A stretch of 61,299 nucleotides of DNA from a virus (lineage: Duplodnaviria; Caudoviricetes), in the IMG/VR virus record IMGVR_UViG_3300025102_000027, positions 1 to 61,299 of that record. One strand, given 5' to 3'. A program made the position numbers and the translations under genes. The notes under the pieces are model-generated. The model made no database searches, was not told where the DNA came from, and saw nothing but the letters and a program-made list of their open reading frames with translations. Positions within the stretch are counted from its first letter, which is position 1, and the number at the start of each line of letters is the position of its first letter. Shown piece by piece: positions 13,885 to 60,676 of the stretch.

Positions 13885-14124
13885 TCATGCTACAATAAAT
13901 TTTCTACCAAACCTCTTTATATACCCTTTTTCCTTCAATTCTTTAATTTTTCTACTGATTGTACGTGGATGCACATCACACAGATCAGCTAAAGTGTTTA
14001 CTGAAGGAAAGCAGGTTCTATTCTTATTACAATAGGTGCATATAACAGCATATACACCTTTTGCTTGTATAGATAGTTCTGGATCAGTAACTACATCTTT
14101 ATTTACTATTCCAAAGGTTTCCAT
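13885..14124 (-). CDS. Helix-turn-helix protein (HTH_36-like)
   Basis: LSIQAKGVY..CFPSVNTLADLC..RTISRKIKELKEKGYI. Confidence 0.8.
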   Translation of the reverse strand: METFGIVNKDVVTDPELSIQAKGVYAVICTYCNKNRTCFPSVNTLADLCDVHPRTISRKIKELKEKGYIKRFGRKFIVA

Positions 14125-14564
14125 AATCCCATAATATTAGATCTCTTTACTCTTACTTCTTTATATTCTGTATCTCCATCATCTTTAATTCTTAAGCAAG
14201 CATGTATTATATATTCACTTGCATAAGGATTAACTCCATCTTGATAATTAGTATCATTTATGATTCTACCTTTAATATGACCATGCTCATCCATAAGTTT
14301 TGCATCCTTCATCATATCCTCTTGACATAAATCTTTAAGATCATATTTATTATCTTTAGGATCAAACCATACAAGATCTGTTTTTTTAAATAGTATGTGA
14401 TCTCTTTCATTTACTATTTCATCTAATATTGCACCTCTTTGTTCATCACTGAGATGTGATATCATCATGTTTAATATAAAGTGTGATGTATTGTGTCCTA
14501 ATATACCTGTACATTCCATGATTGTATCTTTTACTATTTTATATGTTATTTTTTCTATATTCAT
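14106..14564 (-). CDS. Hypothetical protein
   Basis: Probable start MNIEKITY at 14564; upstream extension is low-complexity NNNN. Confidence 0.65.
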   Translation of the reverse strand: MNIEKITYKIVKDTIMECTGILGHNTSHFILNMMISHLSDEQRGAILDEIVNERDHILFKKTDLVWFDPKDNKYDLKDLCQEDMMKDAKLMDEHGHIKGRIINDTNYQDGVNPYASEYIIHACLRIKDDGDTEYKEVRVKRSNIMGLWKPLE

Positions 14565-14705
14565 TTGATTATTATTATTATTTTTATTTTTATTCAGTAA
14601 AAGAATGGACAAAGGGAATTAAATCCCGTAGCTATTCTTTCATTAACTCCCTCTATCACTACTCACTCAAACAGAACAGGCATCTCAACCCGCTCAACTA
14701 TTACC

Positions 14706-14743
14706 AACAGTACTATAACATAAATTAATATTATAGTACTGTT
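14706..14743. repeat. Perfect 13-bp inverted repeat
   Basis: AACAGTACTATAA-12nt-TTATAGTACTGTT. Confidence 0.8.
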
Positions 14744-14758
14744 AGTTAGACATCAGTG

Positions 14759-15379
14759 TCACCATGCAACAACTTTATTTGCATTATATCCTTTATCATC
14801 AGCCTCAGATTTTTTTACTAACACCATTCTACTAATATCCATATCTTTAAACTGTTTTCTAAATCTAGAACCAGCTTCTTGTAAATCTCTCAACATATGA
14901 ATATTATATTTATGACCAAACATATTTAGACCATGGAATTCCACTTCTTTTTTTACACTAACTCCCCATAAACTTAGAGTAAGATCAGTATCATTATCAA
15001 CTTCAAATTCAAAAGGACCAATTATATTATGATAAACTTTAATTTCATTCATTTTTTTCTCCATCCATTTAGGTGCATCATATGTGTGTTCAAATTTTAA
15101 CACAGTTGTTTTACTATCAGTATAATAAATACTTGATACCATACCACCAAAGTATTTATTATGTATAAATAGTTTTTTACCTTCATGACATATACTAACA
15201 GATGCATCATGTCCCTTAAAAGACTTACCTCTATCAACTTTTAATATATTACCATTCATATTATCAGCATGATATATCTCACCACTTGGTCTTTCTTTCT
15301 TTGTACTTGTTATTCTTTCATTTAGATCTGTAAGTACTTCTAGAGCTAATTTTGTATTAGAGTATATAAATTTTTTCAT
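14759..15379 (-). CDS. Hypothetical early protein
   Basis: 206-aa ORF. Confidence 0.75.
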   Translation of the reverse strand: MKKFIYSNTKLALEVLTDLNERITSTKKERPSGEIYHADNMNGNILKVDRGKSFKGHDASVSICHEGKKLFIHNKYFGGMVSSIYYTDSKTTVLKFEHTYDAPKWMEKKMNEIKVYHNIIGPFEFEVDNDTDLTLSLWGVSVKKEVEFHGLNMFGHKYNIHMLRDLQEAGSRFRKQFKDMDISRMVLVKKSEADDKGYNANKVVAW

Positions 15380-15435
15380 TAATTATTATTTAAAAGTGAG
15401 TACATATTTTTCACGCAATATGTTAGCGTTATGTC

Positions 15436-15472
15436 ATTAGTAGAGACAATCCTCTCTATCATCTCTACTAAT
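15436..15472. repeat. 11-bp inverted repeat
   Basis: ATTAGTAGAGA-15nt-TCTCTACTAAT in intergenic region. Confidence 0.7.
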
Positions 15473-15495
15473 AGTGTGTTACTGAGTAAGTGTGA

Positions 15496-15699
15496 TTATT
15501 TAAATAACCACTTCCAAAATCCCAGCGTATAAAGGAGATATGTTACTATCTCAATTATAAGAAAATATGTCTCTCCAAATGGCTCAGGTGCAAATAGTAT
15601 ACTAAATGCAAGAGCAAGTGCAAGACATGTTAATACTGTTGCAAATGCAGGTGCTAAGATAAGAATAGCTATCTTAAGCGGTAAAATAAGATTCTTCAT
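15496..15699 (-). CDS. Small two-TM membrane protein
   Basis: 67 aa, two hydrophobic stretches. Confidence 0.7.
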   Translation of the reverse strand: MKNLILPLKIAILILAPAFATVLTCLALALAFSILFAPEPFGETYFLIIEIVTYLLYTLGFWKWLFK

Positions 15700-15759
15700 A
15701 ATTATATATTTAAGTGAACATTAATTAAATGATTTACTACAGTTTACTCTGTTATAATA

Positions 15760-16157
15760 AATAGTACAGTGAGTGATGAGCAAACTACTCTCACAATGAT
15801 GACTCTTGGGTTCCCCCTTAGACTTCATTAACCCTATGCAGGCGATTAACCTTTATACTCATTATGTTCTCAATATTGATTAGATACCAAGGTTATAACA
15901 TTGTATAGTTCCGTATCAGAACTTCATAAGTTTGCCAGGACTTTAAGATGGCCCTATAGCATTAACGCTTTCAAGATAAGTTATTGTTATCTTGGTTTCA
16001 TCATACTCCAATTGATATATTTAAATAAGATCATACAGTCATTCAACTATACGATCACCCATCATAGGCCAATCAGATGCACTAACCCTCTTGAGAAAGT
16101 TTATTGTGCGACACTCAGGATACGTTGGTAGCTAGCCGTTGTATCCCTTGTACTATT
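15760..16157 (-). ncRNA. Candidate ~400-nt highly structured ncRNA
   Basis: Nested closing helices and internal hairpins whose plus-strand A.C mismatches are G.U pairs on the minus strand. Confidence 0.65.
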
Positions 16158-16267
16158 AAATTAAATAGATTAAGTTACCTAATAAGACTCTGGCGGCTTC
16201 TTAATTTTATAACATCCTGCTTCATTATGCGTTATATACATAAATTGAATGTTATCTATTTATAAAG

Positions 16268-16345
16268 TGGAGATGCTCAGAATTGAACTGAGATACTACA
16301 TAGTACCACAAGTGGTCTTCTATGTAGGCAATACCTATCATCCCC
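16268..16345 (-). ncRNA. tmRNA-like tRNA-like domain lacking the mRNA-like domain
   Basis: GGGGATG/CATCTCC-A acceptor with G3.U70 and A73; stemless D-loop ATAGGTATTGC; CTACATAG/CTATGTAG helix; T-arm CTCAG-TTCAATT-CTGAG; no anticodon loop. Confidence 0.75.
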
Positions 16346-16796
16346 ATGATTTAAACAGTTTTCTCTGTTAGCTTTCCTAGTTCACTATTACCGTGTGTGG
16401 TTCCTAGGTGAATTTGTCCACTTTATATCTGCCCATACTATTAAATTATGGTACAGTTTACTGTTAGAGTTTTTAAGTGTCTCACAACACAAGTTAACTC
16501 AATAACTCTGGTCAGTTCTGTTATTATCCGTCTGATTAGATTTGCGGTTACTATGTCTCTTATCCTATAGAGAGAGAACATAAAGACTATATACTAGCAA
16601 CTACCATCACAGTAGTTTATTGCAGAGAACACCCTTCACATCTCATCTAGGCATTTTGATTGAGCAAACTCACTAGCTATAGCTATATTATTTATTATGG
16701 TTCATTCCATTATATTTTGTGGTGTTAAGTGGTATATTGTGGGAAATAGACTACACTTTTATTGACACACGTGCACAATTAATTAAATAATTGCAA

Positions 16797-17059
16797 CACT
16801 AAACAGAGATTTACCTACATTAGTACATAATGTAACCATTATCACAGGACTTAGGACTAAGTTGAGATAAAACTCTGTTTGAGTGAGTGTCTCCATGCAC
16901 TTTGTTGGGCAAAGTACGTACATTGTTGACGGACAACAATCAAAGCTTACTTGTGGGCTATCAACTCCACAATTGGGCTTTTGGATTACCTTGAGTAACA
17001 CACGAGTAATCTGCTATGGTAGGCCGTGCGGGAGAGGCATTAGCTATTGCTAATCCTCT
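16797..17059 (-). ncRNA. Candidate hairpin-dense structured RNA / 3' UTR of first early gene
   Basis: At least seven consecutive perfect 5-8 bp stems; strand inferred from context only. Confidence 0.5.
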
Positions 17060-17367
17060 GACTCCTGCTTGTCATAGGGCTCTGCCCAAAACAAGCCTGT
17101 CTCTTCACCAGATTCCTGGTCAAGGACTGGAGAATCAGACAATCTGATTCCCTCTAAGACTTGATTTGGTTTAAACCCGTATGAACGAGGATCAACTGTT
17201 TCACCAGTTTCCTCATCCATAATGACAAGAAGACCAAACTTAGCGTTCCCTTGGGTACGCACAGTTGCAGTCTTACCATTGAAAGTCCTTGTGACTTTAT
17301 CAATGGCAGCAGTCTTGACGATAATAGTATTACTATCATCGGCAACCTTGTGGAATAAAACATCCAT
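17050..17367 (-). CDS. First gene of early arm, hypothetical
   Basis: 105 aa, visibly GC-richer than the rest; A-rich leader AAAAAACCAA-ATG. Confidence 0.75.
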   Translation of the reverse strand: MDVLFHKVADDSNTIIVKTAAIDKVTRTFNGKTATVRTQGNAKFGLLVIMDEETGETVDPRSYGFKPNQVLEGIRLSDSPVLDQESGEETGLFWAEPYDKQESED

Positions 17368-17398
17368 TTGGTTTTTTAAGACTTCCCTTGTTTAATTA

Positions 17399-17449
17399 GG
17401 GGGTGGTAACCCACCAATTTTAAGCCGGGGAGCAGAACAATGGGACCCC
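17399..17449. promoter_or_regulatory. GC-rich element at divergence point of early and late arms
   Basis: GGTGG-TAAC-CCACC hairpin and GGGG..CCCC in an otherwise AT-rich genome. Confidence 0.45.
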
Positions 17450-17492
17450 ACGCCAATGCTAAATACACAACAAAACTTTTTTGGGAAAAAAA

Positions 17493-17507
17493 TTTTAAGT
17501 ATATTAT
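17493..17507 (+). promoter_or_regulatory. Late-promoter-like motif (variant)
   Basis: TTTTAAGTATATTAT, resembling repeated TTTTGTATATTAT. Confidence 0.45.
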
Positions 17508-17642
17508 ATAGGTAGGGGGACTAAATAGACACCCAATCCTTTAGTAAAAGGTTTGTGCATTTATATATAACCCTTAGTGTAATGTTGAAGAGTGTGTTTA
17601 ATTATGCCTCTTCTTATGTTTAATTTTATAAATTTTTTAATT

Positions 17643-18065
17643 ATGGCAAATATTTCAATGGCGGCTGCAGAACCTTATTTATATTTTAGAGGGGTAGCTG
17701 ACGAAGACTTATGTGTACAAGCGTCAAAGCTTACTTCAGTACACGCAACTTCTGGTACTAACATCAGATTAACTTTCACTGGCAATGACTATGCATATTC
17801 TCTGTTTGACAGAAAAGACGCAAACAAAGAGACAGCAGGTGAGTGGAAAAATCTTAGACATGTGTATGTTAATCTTACGCATTCTGGTGGTGCAAATTTT
17901 GAAAAGTCGTTCATGAAGAAACTCGTACAAGCTATTAATACTCCTGTTGCTATTGGAGACTCTAGGTCTACATACAACGGAGGATTTATAGTTGTATATG
18001 ATTCTGTTGAGACTGGAGCTAACTTCGCTGGTATATCTGCTGCTGCAGTGACTACTGACGGATAG
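17643..18065 (+). CDS. Hypothetical protein (possible virion protein)
   Basis: Probable start MANISMAAAEPYLYF at 17643. Confidence 0.7.
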   Translation: MANISMAAAEPYLYFRGVADEDLCVQASKLTSVHATSGTNIRLTFTGNDYAYSLFDRKDANKETAGEWKNLRHVYVNLTHSGGANFEKSFMKKLVQAINTPVAIGDSRSTYNGGFIVVYDSVETGANFAGISAAAVTTDG

Positions 18066-52297: not shown

Positions 52298-55200
52298 ATG
52301 GCAAAAGAACAGAATCAAAGACCTAATTTTAATAATACCTCTAAAGTAGATACAGATCTATTTGTTAAAGGTATGATAAAAGATTCTCATGAAAGTTTTG
52401 TAGGACAAGAGAATTGGGTTAATGCAAGAAATGCAATTAATAATTCTGTAAGTGGAGACGCTGGTACTATTGGAAATGAACCCGCTAATTTAAGTTGCGC
52501 TAATGTATTATATACAATTATAGGTGCTGTTTATTTATTTGGAGATAAATGGATAATTTATTCAACAGATAACAACACAAGTGAAATAGGATTATTTGAT
52601 GATAGTCAATGTGAATATGATGTTTTAGTAAATGATACTTGTTTAAACTTTAATAAGTTTAATTTAATAACAGGAGCTTCTAAAGAAAATTATGATTGCA
52701 CATGGCAAATATATTGGGATGATGGATTAAATCCTTCTAGAACTCTTAATATAGGCCCTAAAGATAAAATTACAGAAAACTTACATATTCCATGGATACA
52801 AGAACAAGTTGAAGGTACAGGTACAGAAGATGAACCATGTGTTGAATATGTTGATGTTTTACCATTAAAGCTTAATTGTGATCTTATAAGGTTAGCACCT
52901 TTTATGAAAACTCCTAAACTATCTTTAGAAAAAGCAGATAGTCCAGGTCAATTAAAAAATGGATCTTATCAAGTTTATATTGCATATACAATAAATGAAC
53001 AACAAATAGGAGATTATATAGGAGTTTCAAATATACAACCTCTATTTGATGGAGATGACACTGCTTCATCTTTAGATATATTTATTGATGATTTAGATAA
53101 AAACTTTGAATTTTATAAAGTTGTATTGTTAATGAATAATCAGCAACAAACTCAAGCAATACAATTAGGTTTATATAGTACAGAACAATCAAAAATAAAT
53201 ATTGATTATATAAATCCAAATACAGCATCAGCTTCTCAAGTGCCTATTTCCACATTACCATTACGTACACCTGTTTATGAAAGATCTGATCAAATGGTAG
53301 TTCTTAATGATTATTTAATGAGAGTAGGTCCTACAACTCAATTTGATTTTAATTATCAACCTTTAGCAAATGAAATTACAGCTAGATGGGTTTCAGTAGA
53401 ATATCCTGCAACATATTATAAAAATGGAGGTAATAAACCATCATTTATGAGAGATGAACAATATACTTTCTTTATTAGATTTATATATAAAACAGGAGAT
53501 AAATCAACTTCTTATCATATACCAGGTAGAGCATATTTAACAGATAATCAAATTTTTGGAAATGAAAAAGGTGGAGCAGATAATAATAATGCTTTAAACA
53601 CAGATGAACAAGAATTATGGCAAACAACAAATACTGCTTTTGTAGATGAAATTGATGGCACAACTGTAACAGAAGATGGGGGTGTTATATTATCTAAAGG
53701 TCAAATGGGATATTGGGAGTCATCAGAAAAATATCCTTCAGAAGATCCTCATGGTAGATGGGGTGAATTATGTGGTCAAAATATTAGACATCATAAATTT
53801 CCTGAAGAACAAACAGATATAGATACGCTTAATAGGTCTAGTGCAAATAATCAAAATATACGTATACTAAGTGTAGAATTTGATAATATTGTATGGCCTG
53901 TTGATAATGATGGTGTAAGAATTCCTAATATTACAGGATATGAAATACTAGTGGGATCAAGACAAGGTAATAAATCTATTTTAGCAAAAGGTATTATTAG
54001 AAATATGAGATCATATCAAATACCTGCTGGTGGAAATTTTGGTGCAGATATAGATCCAGCATCTAATATAGTAGGACTAATGCCAAACTATCCATTTAAT
54101 AGTTGGAATGCAGATCCTTATTTAACAACACAAGCTCCAGATGGAACTGCACCAACTATTAGTAATGATCATGATTCTTTTCCTCATATATGTGGTAATA
54201 CAGGTGCTTTTCATGGAACTTGTACAAACTTTTATACATTTCATTCTCCTGAAACATCTTTTAATAGACCTTATTTAAATCCAGCAGAAGTTAAAAGTTA
54301 TGGATTAACTCAAGGATTTCAACAAGGACATTTTACAACTTCTGAAGAACATCCTAAGAATGTATTAATACGTGACTTTGCAGCTATTATAGCTGTATTA
54401 GTTGGTTGTGCTTATGCTATAGGTAAGATGCGTGGTAAAAGAACAACAGAATTGCATTCTAATACTTCAGTTCTACCAGGTGGAATAACCGCTGGAACAG
54501 CATTAATGATTCCTACTGAAACTGCTCTTACACTTTCTACAATTAACCCAGTTTTAGGACCTGGTCTGGGAGAAGAAGCATATATGGGTACTACTGCTGC
54601 AATATGGGAGGCAGAAGGTGCGCTTAACAATATAGGCATACCTCCAGCAGCTGGTCAACTTGGTGCAAAGAGAGTTATGGAATTTGAAGGTACAGATTGG
54701 AAAGCAGGGCCTAATGCTATATATGGTGTATTATCATTATTTGGATTTTTAAATTATGTAGTAGATGGTGGTCAAGTTATTATAGATTTAATTTATAATG
54801 CAGCAGGTGTAAATCAACATGCATATAAATATAATTCATATGGGTTGTATTCACAAACAGAAGCTAGACATGACGGTGATGTCTATAGAGGTAGAATTGA
54901 AAAAGCTAGATATGTTGGAAATGTAATTCAAGATTTTGGATCAACAGGTATAGGATTTAGTGCTAGAGTTAATAATTTATTTAGACCTTCAACAGTTGTA
55001 CTACAATCTTTAGGAAATCAAGGAGGTGCAATGTTAAGTGGTATACCTTCTGATAATTCTAAAGTAACACTAGGTGTAGCAGGACAGGCTGCATTAGATA
55101 ATCCAACTAGAGGTAATTGGACATCTCAAATTGGAGCACATTATGTTGGTCTTAAATTTGCTATGGATAATCAATATGGTCAACTAGATGGTATTAAACA

Positions 55201-58200
55201 AATACCTATATCTAAACCTCAAAACTGGTTAGATGAATTTGGTCATGAAGTTACAAATTTAACAGTTGAAGATAATCAAATATTTAAATCAGAACCTTTA
55301 TTTGGCGGTGATGTCTATATAAATAGATATAATGAAAAAGTTATAATGCCATTTTTCTGGCAATTCTTAAAAGGAGAACCAGATGAGTTTGGATTTCAAT
55401 ATCAAAATTATATGAATGTTCCATATACAAAATTTTATATGGATACTACAAAGTATGATTTAATTAATATGATTGCTCCTATAGCAGATTTTAGTTTTAG
55501 TTGGACTAATGGAGGGTTACCATCTACTATGCACAATATGGATAGAGATGCATCACAAATAGAGACGGGTGGTACTATTTCTGGATATGGACAATGGTCA
55601 ACATCAGGATATTTGGGTGGAACAAATAATAATTTCTTTGTTCTTAAAAGAGCATATATGTATACTCATAATAGTGGTGTAAATGATTTCTTTGTAGAGT
55701 CAGAATTAAATGTTGGATTAAGAGAACAAGGAGGTAATCAAAAAGAAAAGTTTTATGATTGGACTGAATATACAGATCTTAATTCTTTATTTCATTCAGA
55801 TATAATTAAAGATGGTAATTTTTATAAATATGATTTTTCATTAAGTAAGTATAATCTTACAAGTCAAATGATCACCCATGGTGCAATTCAAACTAGAGAT
55901 TATGATCCTTTTGTAGCTGAAACATGTTATGATTATTATCCTAAAAGAATACTATATTCAAATCAAGCGTTTAAAGAAGCTAAAAAAGATTTTTGGAGAG
56001 TATACCTACCAAATAATTATCAAGACTTTAAAAACGCTCCAACTACTATTAAACCTATATCTAAGTCAGGGGCATTAATATTATTTCCACATTTAGCACC
56101 TATATCATTTCAAGGAGTTGATACATTAACTACTGATTATAATACTAAACTTGTTATTGGTGATGGTGGCTTGTTTAATGATCCAATGCAACAAATTAGT
56201 ACAGCTGATCTTCCTCATGAATATGGATCTTGTGAAAATTCACGTAGTGTTATTAATACACCATCGGGTGTATTTTATATGTCACAAGCACAAGGTAAGA
56301 TATTTCAATATGGTCAAACTTTACAAAATATTGCAGATGCAGGAATGAAGCAATGGTTTAATAATTATTTACCTTCTAGATTATTAGCAGCATTTCCAGA
56401 AATAGAAGGAACTTCATTTGCAGATAATCCTATTATGGGTGTTGCTTGTCAATCTGTTTATGATCCTAATTATGATATAGTTTATTTTTGTAAAAAAGAT
56501 TATGAGCCTTGTAATGTAGATGAATGTATACAATTTGATCCAGAAATTCCTGGATTTATCAATCCATGTGAAAATCCACCTACACCAGAATGTCCTGAAG
56601 ATTATAATTTAGAGTGTCAAGGACAAGGAGATAATGAATTTTGTGAATGTTGTCCAGAATGTCCAGAAGGTACATTTGCATCTGTAGATGGTAGAGAGTG
56701 TTGCGAGTGGGTAACAACAGATCCTGAATACGAGTTACCTAGAGAAGGAGTAAATCCTATTGTAGGTGATGCTACAAGTTTATATTTAAATAATCCTGGG
56801 TTTGAACAACCATGTGGAGTTTATTGGTGTGAAAGTCCTGAGCTAAATCCTGATACTCAGTATTATAATCCAGTACTTGATATCAATAATCCTGCTTATG
56901 ATCAAGAAGATTATGAAAATTGGTTTAATGGCGCATATTGGAATCAAAATAATCCTCCCCCAATGAATGAACTTAGAGGATCAGTACCTGATGAATGGAT
57001 AGGATGTATGACAGATATGTGTCCTGCTGAAGGTGAAATTGGATGGACATCACCACAAACTACAGATATATTAGACGGTACTACTTTTTATTCTGTTTCT
57101 AGAACTTGTTGTGGTCTAATGCCTCATACAGGTAATACTTATTTAGGATTATTTTTTCAAGAGAATGGTGACGCTAATGGATACTGGAGAGAAGGTGCAA
57201 CTCAATTATTAAAAGATGAAGATGGTAATGAATCTCCTTTTGTAGCAGGTAATACATATGTAGGAGAAGTTGTATTAGCAGCAGATGGAACTTTTAATAG
57301 ACATCCAGGCCAAGGAAATCCTTATTTAACACTGAGTGATGATAACCCATTTTTTGAACTATTTGATGAGAATGGTAATGCTCATTGTCAAAGAGGAGGT
57401 TTTCCAGGTACGGCAATATTACCAGCTTCAAGTTCTAATGATAGTTATCAAGCACAATACTGTGTTGATTGCGGACTACCTGGACAACCATATGTAAATA
57501 ATAGACCAGAGTTGCAAATATATGGAAGTATGGATCCATGTATGAGTGAAAGTGGAGCATGGTGTGATGCTTTTGCTTGGGTAGACGATTCAGAAATGGG
57601 TGACAATGGAGGAATGGTAAATGGACAACAATACATTGGTGATCCTGAAGACGCTGAATTACTTTGGCGTTCAGGAGATATTTCAAATGGTGGTACAGAT
57701 TACCACCATCTTACTGGTTGGAAAGAATATGCTTATACATTAAATCCAACTAGACCATGGAAATATTTTACATTTATAATAAATTCATTACCCGGTGACA
57801 TATATTTTAACAGCCTTGGTGTTTCTTTGGATAGACCACCAGTTAATGCTTATTTATGTTTAGATAGTTTAACACCCCCTAGGATTGAAGATCCAGGAGG
57901 ATATTGCAGGTGTGATGAAGTAACAGAAGATGGTGTTCCATATACTCTTGTGTTTGATGACGGTATATATGAAACACCTGCTTCAGAAGATGATTGCCTT
58001 AATTATTTAGTAACAGGAGAAGGTTTACCTACAACATGTGTTGCACAAGCATGTGAACCTATTGAATGTATAGAACCCACACTTATACAAACACCTATTG
58101 ATATAACTGATAGCCCTTATTTTAATGATATATCATGGACAGTAAGTTATGATCCAAAAATAAAAGGATGGATATCATTCCATGATTGGCATCCTGAACT

Positions 58201-60676
58201 TACTATGTCAAGTCATAAACATTTCCTAACAACAAATACAGTTCCTTTATTAGAACCACATTGTCCTTTAGGATGGGAGCTAGACGAAATAACAGGATTA
58301 TGCACTCAAGATTGTCCGGAAGGATATTATTTAGAAGATGGTATGTGTCTACCATCAGGTTGTCCTGAAGGAAGTTTTTGGAATGAAACTCAAACACAAT
58401 GTTGTTCATATGAGTATGGAGAATTAGTTGAAAATTTAGATGCAAATGGTAATCCAATTCCAGGTCCTAATGATGTAATAAGTGGGAATACTTCAGTAGC
58501 TGATGAACTGGGTATTACTAATCCTATGCTTAATGGTCCTAATGGTGATGGTAACTCTCCTACTGGTTGGAATATAGGAGCTATAAATTCTGGAGGCGTT
58601 GTACAGTATTGGAAAGGGACAAGCGCCCCAATGACTTGGGGAGGACAAGAGGTATATGCTGATGGACCAACATCTTTTTCACAATTAGAAATAGATGGTA
58701 CAATGTACACTATACCTGAAAATATTATATGGGGTGGTCCATCAGGCGTGTTTACTGCAGATTTAAATCCTAGTATAGTATATGGTGGATTATACAGTCT
58801 TGATGAAGATAATCCTAATAGATATATAGGCATGTATCATAATATAGGATATTGCGGTACCTGTTGTCAATCAGGAAAAAGAAATGTAAACAATAGAGAT
58901 ACTACAGAATCTTTTCAAGCTTATATGGATTATTTTGATACTTTAGAAGATGATTATATTGGAAGCGAGTTTGATAATGGAGCAGGTTTTGCAGGTTCTA
59001 TTGCTAATAAAGATTGGGCTCTTAATCCGAATGGCCAAAAAGGAATAAGTAGTTTTTGCTATAGAGAGGCACAATGGCAAAAATTACCACAACCAATGGT
59101 AGTTGGTCAAACTTATAATAGCACTATAGCTGCTGCTGCTCCAAAGAGGACTTCTAATACCTCTTATGATAGATTAGGTCCCAAAACTTGTTGGCCAGCT
59201 CAAGTAGAGATTTGGGGAAGTGACTCTCCTCCTGGATGTTATAGAAGTTTTGCTGAAATAGCAGCACAAGAAGCTGAAGAAGAAGCTTTAGGTGAAGAGG
59301 GATATGGTGCTCCGGGTATGTGTTCTACAGGATATGGAAGTTGTAATTGTTCTTGGGGTGGTCCTATGGTTAATTTATATTATAAAGACATGGATGGAAA
59401 TCCTGACCCTCATTCGCAACTTCTTTGGGCATCTCCTGATGTAACTGATAGAGGAGAAGGTCCTGGAACACATTGTGTTTGTAATTATAATTTGACAGAT
59501 TGCACTCAGGAAGAAAGAGATGCATCTAATTGGAATGTTTATGATGTATCATTTACTCCAACTAAACCTTGGAGATATATAACATTTAGAGCTAACGGAT
59601 GGTCTTCAACATTTAGACCTAAATATACTTATGATAATTTACTGAATAATGATGATCCTGATTGTATGGGTTGCATGTTTGATAATTTTGGACCTTATGA
59701 TTTAGCAGAGGGAGAATACAATAATTTTAATGACATAGGATTTTTTGGTCTAGGTGAAGGAGATGCTGCATATGTACTTGTTGATAATTTCCTACTGGAT
59801 GCCCCAGAGCCACCAGTTATACCTACTAATTGTTCTTGTGAAGAAGGTTTTGAAATGGTATATGCAGGAAGTACTACACCTGTTCCTGAAAGTGAGCAAC
59901 CAATTCTTTGTGTAGATGAGGGAAATACTGTAGAATGTGTTAAATTAATTTGTGAGGATATATTACCAATACCTAACGAACCATTAGAACCTTCTTTTGA
60001 ATCTAGCGGTTTATGGAAACATAATGTACGTTGTGATCTATTTAATAATTATTATGATATACAATATCCTTGGGAAATAGAAATAATTGAATCTGTAGGT
60101 CAAGAAGTTAATACTATAAGAAGTATTGAATATCAACTTGAATCATATTTATATAGAGCAAAATATGATGAAGAGGGCTGTATAATAAATTCTGCATGTG
60201 AAGATAGATGGCATGATTTAAAATATAATTTTGATGAAGCTATTGTTTATAATTCAGAACAAAACTCAGGATTACTAACACTTATACAACAAAATACTAA
60301 TGTAAATGATATTGTACAATACCCAATAATAGGTGAAGCTGATATACAAATACTGTATACTAAAGTAGAACAAAAATATAGATTTGATCAATTCTGGGAT
60401 AATACAAGGAATAGAAATAACGCATTTCAATCTATGTTTATTACACAATTAAATGGTTATATTAAAGATTTAAATGCTGCTTATTTAGATTATGATAAAC
60501 CACAATTAGAACGTAAAAAGTTTAGACATTATGTAAATAATTTAATTCTAAGAAAGAAGGTTATTTATGAAGAAACAAATTTAGATGCTATTACCGTATA
60601 TCCGGATGGTAAACCGCATACAAGAAAAATGTTACTTAAATTAGTTAATACAAAAATAAACTTATCACATAGATAA
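52298..60676 (+). CDS. Tail stabilisation/muzzle protein with two large inserted domains
   Basis: KGMIKD..NARNAIN..IGNE N-terminus, SFMRDEQY, IRHHKFP, GGDVYI, SWTVSYDP..WISFHDWHP. Confidence 0.8.
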   Translation: MAKEQNQRPNFNNTSKVDTDLFVKGMIKDSHESFVGQENWVNARNAINNSVSGDAGTIGNEPANLSCANVLYTIIGAVYLFGDKWIIYSTDNNTSEIGLFDDSQCEYDVLVNDTCLNFNKFNLITGASKENYDCTWQIYWDDGLNPSRTLNIGPKDKITENLHIPWIQEQVEGTGTEDEPCVEYVDVLPLKLNCDLIRLAPFMKTPKLSLEKADSPGQLKNGSYQVYIAYTINEQQIGDYIGVSNIQPLFDGDDTASSLDIFIDDLDKNFEFYKVVLLMNNQQQTQAIQLGLYSTEQSKINIDYINPNTASASQVPISTLPLRTPVYERSDQMVVLNDYLMRVGPTTQFDFNYQPLANEITARWVSVEYPATYYKNGGNKPSFMRDEQYTFFIRFIYKTGDKSTSYHIPGRAYLTDNQIFGNEKGGADNNNALNTDEQELWQTTNTAFVDEIDGTTVTEDGGVILSKGQMGYWESSEKYPSEDPHGRWGELCGQNIRHHKFPEEQTDIDTLNRSSANNQNIRILSVEFDNIVWPVDNDGVRIPNITGYEILVGSRQGNKSILAKGIIRNMRSYQIPAGGNFGADIDPASNIVGLMPNYPFNSWNADPYLTTQAPDGTAPTISNDHDSFPHICGNTGAFHGTCTNFYTFHSPETSFNRPYLNPAEVKSYGLTQGFQQGHFTTSEEHPKNVLIRDFAAIIAVLVGCAYAIGKMRGKRTTELHSNTSVLPGGITAGTALMIPTETALTLSTINPVLGPGLGEEAYMGTTAAIWEAEGALNNIGIPPAAGQLGAKRVMEFEGTDWKAGPNAIYGVLSLFGFLNYVVDGGQVIIDLIYNAAGVNQHAYKYNSYGLYSQTEARHDGDVYRGRIEKARYVGNVIQDFGSTGIGFSARVNNLFRPSTVVLQSLGNQGGAMLSGIPSDNSKVTLGVAGQAALDNPTRGNWTSQIGAHYVGLKFAMDNQYGQLDGIKQIPISKPQNWLDEFGHEVTNLTVEDNQIFKSEPLFGGDVYINRYNEKVIMPFFWQFLKGEPDEFGFQYQNYMNVPYTKFYMDTTKYDLINMIAPIADFSFSWTNGGLPSTMHNMDRDASQIETGGTISGYGQWSTSGYLGGTNNNFFVLKRAYMYTHNSGVNDFFVESELNVGLREQGGNQKEKFYDWTEYTDLNSLFHSDIIKDGNFYKYDFSLSKYNLTSQMITHGAIQTRDYDPFVAETCYDYYPKRILYSNQAFKEAKKDFWRVYLPNNYQDFKNAPTTIKPISKSGALILFPHLAPISFQGVDTLTTDYNTKLVIGDGGLFNDPMQQISTADLPHEYGSCENSRSVINTPSGVFYMSQAQGKIFQYGQTLQNIADAGMKQWFNNYLPSRLLAAFPEIEGTSFADNPIMGVACQSVYDPNYDIVYFCKKDYEPCNVDECIQFDPEIPGFINPCENPPTPECPEDYNLECQGQGDNEFCECCPECPEGTFASVDGRECCEWVTTDPEYELPREGVNPIVGDATSLYLNNPGFEQPCGVYWCESPELNPDTQYYNPVLDINNPAYDQEDYENWFNGAYWNQNNPPPMNELRGSVPDEWIGCMTDMCPAEGEIGWTSPQTTDILDGTTFYSVSRTCCGLMPHTGNTYLGLFFQENGDANGYWREGATQLLKDEDGNESPFVAGNTYVGEVVLAADGTFNRHPGQGNPYLTLSDDNPFFELFDENGNAHCQRGGFPGTAILPASSSNDSYQAQYCVDCGLPGQPYVNNRPELQIYGSMDPCMSESGAWCDAFAWVDDSEMGDNGGMVNGQQYIGDPEDAELLWRSGDISNGGTDYHHLTGWKEYAYTLNPTRPWKYFTFIINSLPGDIYFNSLGVSLDRPPVNAYLCLDSLTPPRIEDPGGYCRCDEVTEDGVPYTLVFDDGIYETPASEDDCLNYLVTGEGLPTTCVAQACEPIECIEPTLIQTPIDITDSPYFNDISWTVSYDPKIKGWISFHDWHPELTMSSHKHFLTTNTVPLLEPHCPLGWELDEITGLCTQDCPEGYYLEDGMCLPSGCPEGSFWNETQTQCCSYEYGELVENLDANGNPIPGPNDVISGNTSVADELGITNPMLNGPNGDGNSPTGWNIGAINSGGVVQYWKGTSAPMTWGGQEVYADGPTSFSQLEIDGTMYTIPENIIWGGPSGVFTADLNPSIVYGGLYSLDEDNPNRYIGMYHNIGYCGTCCQSGKRNVNNRDTTESFQAYMDYFDTLEDDYIGSEFDNGAGFAGSIANKDWALNPNGQKGISSFCYREAQWQKLPQPMVVGQTYNSTIAAAAPKRTSNTSYDRLGPKTCWPAQVEIWGSDSPPGCYRSFAEIAAQEAEEEALGEEGYGAPGMCSTGYGSCNCSWGGPMVNLYYKDMDGNPDPHSQLLWASPDVTDRGEGPGTHCVCNYNLTDCTQEERDASNWNVYDVSFTPTKPWRYITFRANGWSSTFRPKYTYDNLLNNDDPDCMGCMFDNFGPYDLAEGEYNNFNDIGFFGLGEGDAAYVLVDNFLLDAPEPPVIPTNCSCEEGFEMVYAGSTTPVPESEQPILCVDEGNTVECVKLICEDILPIPNEPLEPSFESSGLWKHNVRCDLFNNYYDIQYPWEIEIIESVGQEVNTIRSIEYQLESYLYRAKYDEEGCIINSACEDRWHDLKYNFDEAIVYNSEQNSGLLTLIQQNTNVNDIVQYPIIGEADIQILYTKVEQKYRFDQFWDNTRNRNNAFQSMFITQLNGYIKDLNAAYLDYDKPQLERKKFRHYVNNLILRKKVIYEETNLDAITVYPDGKPHTRKMLLKLVNTKINLSHR

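Follow-up and report, generated by a model that had tools for sequence, protein, structure and literature searches.

Lineage-specific complementarity between a replication-operon leader and a distal non-coding slot in marine crAss-like phages: a candidate long-range RNA contact

The DNA studied here, hereafter the window, is a stretch of 61,299 nucleotides from a virus of the Caudoviricetes (IMG/VR record IMGVR_UViG_3300025102_000027), in which two non-coding segments lying 2.2 kb apart, arm 1 (14661-14689) and arm 2 (16861-16888), are complementary to each other over blocks of 15 and 8 nt. Comparison with uncultured relatives reveals that arm 1 belongs to a conserved module with co-varying hairpins, that arm 2 sits in a fixed slot and has a conserved local pairing partner, and that, in the lineages possessing both arms, arm 2 follows the arm 1 of its own lineage. 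From these comparisons we infer a pairing in RNA, its strand, its mode (cis or trans) and its consequence tentatively: the arms may represent a selected RNA-RNA complementarity with either strand as the transcript, and this is the reading that we favour over its rivals.

The 15-nt block of arm 1 at 14661-14675 (ACTCACTCAAACAGA, or TCTGTTTGAGTGAGT on the minus strand) equals the reverse complement of 16874-16888 at every position, as does its 8-nt block at 14682-14689 (ATCTCAAC, or GTTGAGAT on the minus strand) that of 16861-16868, the two being collinear across a 6x5 internal loop, just as an earlier note made from the letters of the window had described. That note had also called both sites non-coding, and we concur that neither lies within a credible gene: arm 1 falls between the minus-strand open reading frames (ORFs) 14106-14564 and 14759-15379, and arm 2 is overlapped solely by short unsupported ORFs. 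Within the window alone the match is no more than chance, and it is judged to be non-random only because of the comparison with relatives. A blastn search of 14000-18000 against named phages gave no match, and searches of viral contigs with the proteins of 14759-15379 and 17592-18065 recovered no relatives; a relative with conserved non-coding blocks at its 5' end (L070; such handles denote the lineages compared) was found via a downstream gene, and a family of uncultured relatives was collected using conserved non-coding blocks and the arm-1 core as anchors. The genes of the first syntenic relatives compared are ~76-80% identical to those of the window. Two further candidates, L072 and L075, were dropped as chance matches to the anchor.

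Arm 1 lies in a module that spans 14603-14703 on the minus strand and comprises hairpin 1, a core and hairpin 2. The module scores 51.9 bits (E = 4e-14) with an nhmmer profile, which finds the full module exactly once in each relative locus, as 22 distinct sequences overall (L130, with E = 1.2 against the profile, is excluded from these). Hairpin 1 (14674-14695, minus strand) has an 8-bp stem and a 6-nt loop, is followed by the U-rich TCTGTTT, and folds in 14/14 lineages despite differing stem sequences. Hairpin 2 (14603-14664, minus strand, with the main stem at 14608-14657) is a leader stem-loop situated just upstream of the first replication-module gene, with 12 consensus pairs in RNAalifold, of which seven have both sides changed; many of its pairs are G-U, which would be A-C on the other strand, and the leader is therefore read as an RNA structure on the minus strand. 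This hairpin is what the earlier note had taken for a terminator-like structure at ~14600-14640; it is a part of the conserved leader, with compensatory pairs, and is not obviously a terminator. The label 'RNA island' that the note had given to this region likewise finds no counterpart among known RNAs: ARAGORN reports no tRNA in the window, and Rfam 15 has no match at the gathering score over the whole window, the matches to 14400-17700 in E-value mode appearing only at E >= 0.22, far below threshold.

The 15-mer of arm 1 occupies the single-stranded linker between the two hairpins, whose core is conserved in the relatives as T(C)T(G/A)TTT(G/A)AGTG(A/G)GTAGTGAT, and the 8-mer comprises the loop of hairpin 1 with two stem bases, a loop sequence type found also in L128, L108 and L125/L109. 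The matched blocks are, in structural terms, the hairpin-1 loop and its 3' flank, and the unmatched 6-nt spacer, the 'internal loop' of the long-range helix, is the occluded 3' half of the hairpin-1 stem. In the relatives too the module stands upstream of the first replication-module gene, a place taken by tRNA-Arg(TCT) in L127, L130, L134 and L136 (also L133). The operon that it leads begins on the minus strand (13885-14564) with 14106-14564 (152 aa) and 13885-14124 (79 aa), the latter coding for a winged helix of the replication-initiator type (PF13730 HTH_36, 2.5e-16; phrog_270 and phrog_428, 'replication initiation protein', 3e-16 and 6e-16).

Arm 2, the distal complement of arm 1, consists of the 8-mer at 16861-16868, a spacer and the 15-mer at 16874-16888. 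Its slot is fixed relative to a conserved non-coding anchor (16677-16745), extending from anchor +157 to +235, and arm 2 lies 60-190 nt beyond the stop of a small leftward ORF across lineages. In 7/18 lineages tested a partial, inverted copy of the arm 1 of that very lineage is present in the slot (p <= 0.05, slot shuffles), and L087 provides an eighth case (score 33 vs a shuffle maximum of 30 in 200); the tally over the 19 testable lineages is eight with arm 2, one with a weak copy (L076) and ten with none, with L020, L113 and L084/L125 falling outside the count as their slot is beyond the end of the locus. Direct-orientation controls in the slot remain at shuffle level, and measuring the slot from an ultra-conserved block (16542-16591) instead of the anchor gives the same outcome. 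The presence of arm 2 is associated with a long distance from arm 1 to the anchor, which ranges over 266-2232 nt across lineages (Mann-Whitney p = 0.0016 by lineage; 0.009 when roughly collapsed to clades). Arm 2 is not a duplicate of the module, with which it shares just 17-26 profile positions (~7 bits) and whose hairpins it lacks.

The two arms co-vary by lineage. Alignment scores between the arm 1 and arm 2 of the same lineage total 198, vs 157 +/- 12 for permuted pairs, with 17/40,320 permutations reaching 198; with one representative per clade the corresponding counts are 1/120 and 8/120 permutations, and with duplex energies the permutation fraction is 0.0011 for minus-strand and 0.0029 for plus-strand RNAs. 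The part of the module that is tracked differs: arm 2 of L108, L087 and L128 tracks the lineage's own, otherwise variable, hairpin-1 loop, that of L117 copies hairpin 1 itself and not the core, and those of L134, L109, L077 and L076 match the core only. The closest relative of the window, L128, is the most informative case, its arm 2 being identical to that of the window at 31/33 positions amid diverged flanks and forming the best-conserved island in the neighbourhood. It differs by an A inserted in GAGAT and by a change of TTTGAG to TTTAAG, both of which are mirrored in the L128 arm 1 (GAGATG to GAGAAG and TTTGAG to TTTAAG), and it presents two perfect blocks around an unrelated spacer; in the window/L128 pair the spacers of the two arms are unrelated, differing at 5/6 positions. 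Mirrored changes next to unrelated spacers are beyond what one gene-conversion tract can produce, whereas a helix interrupted by an internal loop, or a bipartite site, can account for them. In most lineages the block spacing also differs by 1-2 nt between the arms, a shift more easily accommodated by a helix with bulges than by a bipartite protein site. A conserved and co-varying complementarity, as looked for in an antisense or small RNA-target pair, is thus seen in 8/19 lineages, in the permutations and in the mirrored window/L128 changes; the earlier note had reckoned with the prospect of relatives lacking conserved pairing, and what the relatives have is a lineage-specific complementarity with changes mirrored in both arms.

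Arm 2 also has a local alternative partner at 16801-16816, which pairs with 16865-16880 at 14/16 positions. The earlier note had pointed to such an alternative, and it is retained in all six lineages in which it could be scored: the anchor-side flank pairs with arm 2 better than do shuffles in 6/6 (z -1.8 to -5.1, minus-strand RNA; L076, L117 and L134 are left out of the count since arm 2 is mis-located there, 3/9), and the flank away from the anchor shows no such excess in the six lineages. The conserved local partner makes an RNA helix or a conformational switch a live reading, and now the leading one, and it echoes the switch proposed in the earlier note.

On this basis we propose that arm 2 might be transcribed leftward, as the 3' untranslated region (UTR) of the small ORF or by read-through, yielding an RNA complementary to the accessible parts of the leader, namely the hairpin-1 loop and its 3' linker, and skipping the occluded 3' half of the hairpin-1 stem. 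Such an RNA could switch between a local hairpin with 16801-16816 and the distal contact, and the effect of the distal pairing on the leader of the replication operon would be to mask, remodel or create a site of double-strand cleavage, so that the expression of the replication genes would be coupled to transcription through the origin region. We tentatively see the pairing as a variant of known long-range or antisense RNA control. The more specific proposal of a co-evolving, kilobase-range RNA 'clamp' in marine crAss-like phages, bracketing an origin and a cargo cassette and toggling between a local hairpin and a distal contact, strikes us as doubtful. Were it true, transcription through the origin would be linked to replication-gene expression, or to an origin-spanning non-coding RNA being excised and stabilised, and lineages would gain the clamp as cargo accumulates.

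Thermodynamic predictions are in line with RNA pairing in part of the family: the duplex energies reach -35 to -41 kcal/mol in the window, -43 in L128 and -35 in L108, and the long-range helix is present in the full 1.9-2.4 kb transcript folds of these three, such whole-transcript minimum-free-energy (MFE) folds being permissive evidence only. An RNA-library contig, which is unstranded and of low depth and may be DNA, spans 16847-17084 and takes in arm 2 together with the end of the small ORF.

A series of observations weighs against the favoured RNA pairing. The window has 18 perfect inverted runs of at least 15 nt vs 11.0 +/- 3.7 in 40 dinucleotide shuffles, and six perfect inverted 15-mers within 5 kb vs 3.5 +/- 1.9, so that the chance of about 1e-9 per position pair quoted in the earlier note is misleading for ~1.9e9 pairs at 31% GC. 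Among the 49 duplexes that grow from a seed of >=14 nt, the composite one (-35.2 kcal/mol, flanks of +/-25 nt included) comes 7th, and an equally or more stable duplex is present in 72% of 60 shuffles; similar matches are, in other words, frequent in shuffled controls, an outcome that the note had itself named as refuting. Across the family, the duplexes of L109, L077, L076, L117 and L134 attain only -21 to -30 kcal/mol, with bulges, and the whole-transcript folds do not robustly keep the helix in 5/8 lineages. Ten of the 19 lineages have arm 1 without arm 2, implying that the primary function of arm 1 is independent of the pairing; L026 and L131/L034 even carry the exact 15-mer of the window in arm 1 and yet have no arm 2 (arm 1 of L020 also carries it, with the slot outside the locus). 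The permutation p-values are optimistic because the lineages are related. As to the strand, the hand-tallied arm mismatches (8 G-U-compatible on the minus vs 3-4 on the plus strand) do not differ significantly; the minus-strand duplexes are more stable in 7/8 lineages, and the cross-lineage controls likewise; and the small hairpin of the anchor has plus-strand G-T pairs in two lineages. If the ultra-conserved block is a rightward promoter, as it appears by eye, arm 2 in the plus-strand RNA would be identical, and not complementary, to the leader. Finally, a clean minus-strand terminator separates the small ORF from arm 2 in L076 and L077, and leftward read-through into arm 2 is therefore not assured.

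The alternative that survives best, though we consider it unlikely, is that a single lineage-specific DNA-binding protein recognises both arms as DNA sites, the initiator-like winged helix being the obvious candidate; the sites would be inverted and flank an origin-like region, arm 1 would also serve the initiator operon as an operator or a promoter element, and the sites would co-evolve with the specificity of the protein. The initiator-type HTH gene does lie in the operon led by arm 1, an AT-rich origin-like element with three phased GTGG repeats is found between the arms, and the AGTG(G/A)GTA contained in the core is, in our own reading, loosely like these repeats. The motif is local, as expected of a local operator, and not genome-wide (two copies in the window, one in a 98%-complete relative); a genome-wide promoter signal was rejected, the counts at <=2 mismatches being equal to those of a reversed-pattern control, and a scan for consensus sigma-70 promoters and terminators remained at shuffle level. 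The minus strand of arm 1 also presents a TCTRTTTR box, which in many lineages is preceded at 19 nt by TTG(A); neither its final G nor its second base is conserved. The consensus sigma-A promoter of Bacteroidota has TTG at -33 and TAnnTTTG at -7, with the TTG about 19-21 nt upstream, a layout that the arm-1 box may match; arm 2 of the window is without a well-placed TTG. An unrelated spacer between two contacted blocks would, moreover, be compatible with a bipartite protein site. Against such sites, however, the matched segment shifts along the module from hairpin 1 in L117 to the core in L134, L109, L077 and L076, leaving no sub-site common to all; the spacing of the blocks differs by 1-2 nt between copies in most lineages; and tracking extends to a hairpin loop whose sequence differs freely from one lineage to another. 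A same sub-site at a fixed spacing in every copy and lineage, as looked for in an iteron or operator, is not what is found. The anchor repeats, by eye, do not co-vary with the arms between the window and L128, and the conserved local complement of arm 2 would have no role.

We regard as still less probable a by-product of DNA-level processes without any pairing function, be it remnants of inverted duplication or gene conversion left by cargo turnover or sites of inversion recombination. The interval between the arms is indeed a hotspot of cassette gain and loss with repeated boundary motifs, the presence of arm 2 correlates with cargo length, and the two copies in L087 are similar almost contiguously over 38 nt, as after a duplication. 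Nevertheless, the same slot is used in at least five clades, each copy matching its own arm 1, which would need independent duplications or continual conversion; the window/L128 pair has perfect blocks with mirrored changes and a spacer that has not been converted; and arm 2 is the most conserved island of its neighbourhood. Tracts of 8 and 15 nt are, besides, too short for efficient gene conversion. Inverted repeats flanking a segment are also the classic layout of invertible DNA, and the earlier note had asked that DNA inversion be excluded; the check gave no support for it. The contigs of four runs contain no strand-switch joints (contigs can miss rare variants), and the orientation of the ultra-conserved block relative to the flanking genes is identical in all oriented loci. 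Serine and tyrosine recombinases (PF00239, PF00589) are absent from the five records searched, including the 98%-complete genome, which is itself without arm 2 (the controls of this search succeeded in 12/14 and 14/14 genomes), and recombinase domains are likewise absent from the Pfam scans of the window ORFs (12 and 34 proteins).

A further reading, to which we give little credence, is that identity and not complementarity matters: arm 2 would be transcribed rightward, e.g. from the ultra-conserved block, so that the same sequence would be present on two divergent RNAs competing for one trans-acting protein or RNA, with arm 2 as the decoy, or it would be a second promoter or terminator of the same type. 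Read outward, both arms do present the same oriented motif, the ultra-conserved block looks by eye like a rightward promoter of the sigma-70 type, the anchor hairpin has the plus-strand G-T pairs mentioned above, and ~16795-16834 on the minus strand again resembles, by eye, 'hairpin + TCTGTTT.AGTG'. In the marine crAss-like phage phi14:2 the middle promoters are reported to be sigma-70-like and the long intergenic RNAs to be made rightward (10.1101/2020.03.07.982082). This reading, however, requires a third co-evolving partner, of which none was found; neither the window nor a 115-kb relative has further copies of the motif at 0-1 mismatch; arm 2 lacks the module hairpins and most of the profile; and the spacing varies between copies. 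Pure chance, an ordinary 15-mer inverted repeat in an AT-rich genome, accords with the shuffle statistics and with the presence of the 15-mer, used as a search pattern, in 67 viral-contig loci (one copy each, only three of them relatives and 64 without the arm-1 context), but is highly improbable, being strongly disfavoured by the comparative data, in which own-lineage copies of arm 2 occur in the homologous slot and the window/L128 changes are mirrored. Taken together, the interpretation of the earlier note is partly supported.

The wider context of the favoured RNA pairing is a 61.3-kb viral contig estimated to be ~50% complete, with 31% GC. Its large terminase, its portal and its major capsid protein all have matches in crAss-like families, with only ~25% identity between the terminase and those of named Crassvirales, and the DNA runs that contain the stretch are labelled as marine or seawater metagenomes. 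The minus-strand genes up to 15699 constitute a replication module (primase, DnaB-like and SNF2-like helicases, RusA and the HTH protein), and the plus-strand genes start at 17592 and lead into the structural genes; the stretch separating the two sets is poor in ORFs and has a raised GC content. No convincing long frame opens in 15400-17700 under alternative genetic codes (TAG=Q, table 4), the longest recoded frame being 16783-17367 on the minus strand (194 aa, TAG=Q), which extends the small ORF and requires three read-through stops. At the end of the structural block lies a 2792-aa ORF (52298-60676) with no Pfam match; a giant virion protein of such a size in crAss-like phages is the virion RNA polymerase, for which this ORF is a candidate. 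Over the whole window, seven long-range duplexes seeded by >=14 nt have energies of <= -35.2 kcal/mol vs a shuffle mean of 1.3; the top one is formed by low-complexity coding repeats on gene blocks of opposite strands, and examples of these duplexes join 12940 with 34460 and 22613 with 59226.

Between the arms, a variable cargo segment (14759-16541, minus strand) is followed by the ultra-conserved block and the anchor. The cargo, which mostly consists of small ORFs on the strand of the module, here comprises ORFs 14759-15379 (206 aa) and 15496-15699 (67 aa), neither of which matches any family, and ~840 nt free of ORFs with repeated boundary motifs; the interval from arm 1 to the conserved centre is ~217 nt in L073 vs ~1960 nt in the window. 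Directly after the stop of the 206-aa cargo ORF on the minus strand, and upstream of hairpin 1, 14703-14746 forms a near-perfect palindrome with 22-nt arms, which is probably the terminator of that gene; its Rfam matches are all sub-threshold (microRNA families and RAGATH-35, E >= 1). The motif ACAGTTTACTCTG(TTA) recurs at 15739-15754, 16355-16370 and 16452-16462, and TACTATTAAATTA at 16151-16163 and 16436-16448, in both cases at boundaries of variable segments, and the former is found also at the junction of L073 and in L077 and L080; these repeats may be cassette boundaries or transcription signals. The alignments of the relatives' contigs stop at 16158 and restart at 16542. In one RNA-library contig 16157 is followed directly by 16266, so that 108 nt are skipped (depth 2.8, shorter side 27 nt); a strain variant or a joint at the RNA level could account for this, on evidence too thin for a call.

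The ultra-conserved block (16542-16591) is non-coding and ~50 nt long; its identity is 98-100% in relatives with genes at only ~76-80%, and it hardly varies across 22 lineages. It carries the inverted repeat TCTCT...AGAGA, and by eye contains TTGCGG-N18-TATAGA, whence its resemblance to a rightward promoter. Contigs pile up at this block, which is also the highest depth bin in run X6. A variable spacer separates it from the anchor (16677-16745), which has an AT-rich element (TATAGCTATATTATTTATTAT), a small hairpin that co-varies between lineages (ATGG/CCAT, GTGG/CCAC, ACGG/CCGT, ACTGT/ACAGT) and three GTGG repeats ~11 nt apart. The cumulative GC-skew minimum lies near the anchor; this, the anchor elements and the adjacent initiator gene give the anchor region the look of an origin of replication.

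To the right of the slot, homologues of the small leftward ORF (17050-17367, minus strand, 105 aa, with arm 2 located 160 nt past its stop codon) occur in all 11 lineages listed, with lengths of 100-157 aa and a shared pattern F-H-K ... N-G ... R-T-Q ... K-F-G-L-L-V-I. Its GC content of ~45% is far above that of the genome and its conservation is seen by tblastx in L070; it has no match in Pfam, PHROG or Atlas. Between the start of this ORF and the first rightward gene, 17368-17591 contains conserved G-rich blocks in common with L070 (e.g., GGGGGTGGTAACCCACC and GCCGGGGAGCAGAAC) and is likely the true divergent promoter region.

Phages of the crAss-like group are among the most abundant viruses known, and the present locus offers a testable handle on the control of their replication and on their long non-coding regions. 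The presence of the distal site in eight lineages and its absence from ten provide a natural comparison for the role of the contact. There is also a more general lesson, in that a match which is statistically ordinary in one genome can be under selection, something that only relatives reveal.

Searches of the literature on crAss-like promoters, transcription, non-coding RNA and origins brought up no long-range pairing of this sort. A comparable setting is again that of phi14:2, for which the report describes abundant non-coding RNAs from long intergenic regions, with function unassigned, early transcripts having no common upstream motif, and sigma-70-like middle promoters that are often upstream of tRNA genes (10.1101/2020.03.07.982082). 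It shares with the window a marine crAss-like origin and a long ORF-poor region near the replication module, whereas 14000-18000 of the window has no blastn similarity to it or other named phages.

Several known systems are comparable in mechanism. Invertible segments bounded by inverted repeats are typified by the G segment of Mu with its Gin recombinase and by the invertons of Bacteroides: here too short inverted repeats flank a 1-2 kb segment of variable content with promoter-like elements, but no recombinase, inverted configuration or strand-switch joint was found in the contigs and records searched. Iteron and operator sites are exemplified by those of lambda O and of the Rep proteins of iteron plasmids, which also bind inverted repeats in their own promoter. 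The present motifs are similar in being short, repeated and local around an AT-rich origin-like region beside an initiator-type HTH gene, with one copy overlapping the upstream region of the initiator operon; they differ in comprising two copies only, 1-2.3 kb apart, in the variability of the matched sub-segment and of the spacing, and in the tracking of a variable loop. Long-range stems cut by RNase III are known from the flanks of 16S and 23S rRNA in bacterial rRNA operons, with RNase III sites also in the early RNA of phage T7. A processing stem of this type was among the proposals of the earlier note. As in these stems, the segments are 1-2 kb or more apart, and on a shared transcript they would form a helix of at least 20 bp with an internal loop (8+15 bp in the window, up to 11+16 bp in L128) that brackets a long non-coding stretch; unlike them, the helix is short or interrupted in 5/8 lineages scored, arm 2 is lacking from 10/19, and the bracketed region is an origin-like element with cargo genes instead of a stable RNA gene. 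Antisense systems that pair through a loop and an adjacent single strand include CopA/CopT of plasmid R1, RNA I/RNA II of ColE1 and the two-site pairing of OxyS with fhlA. In contrast to CopA/CopT, the candidate regulator here would be encoded 1-2.3 kb from its target and not opposite to it, and hence would not be a cis-antisense RNA. Like these regulators, however, it would have an alternative local fold and partners that co-vary, and its complementarity is to the hairpin loop and single-stranded linker of the leader of an initiator operon, near an origin-like region.

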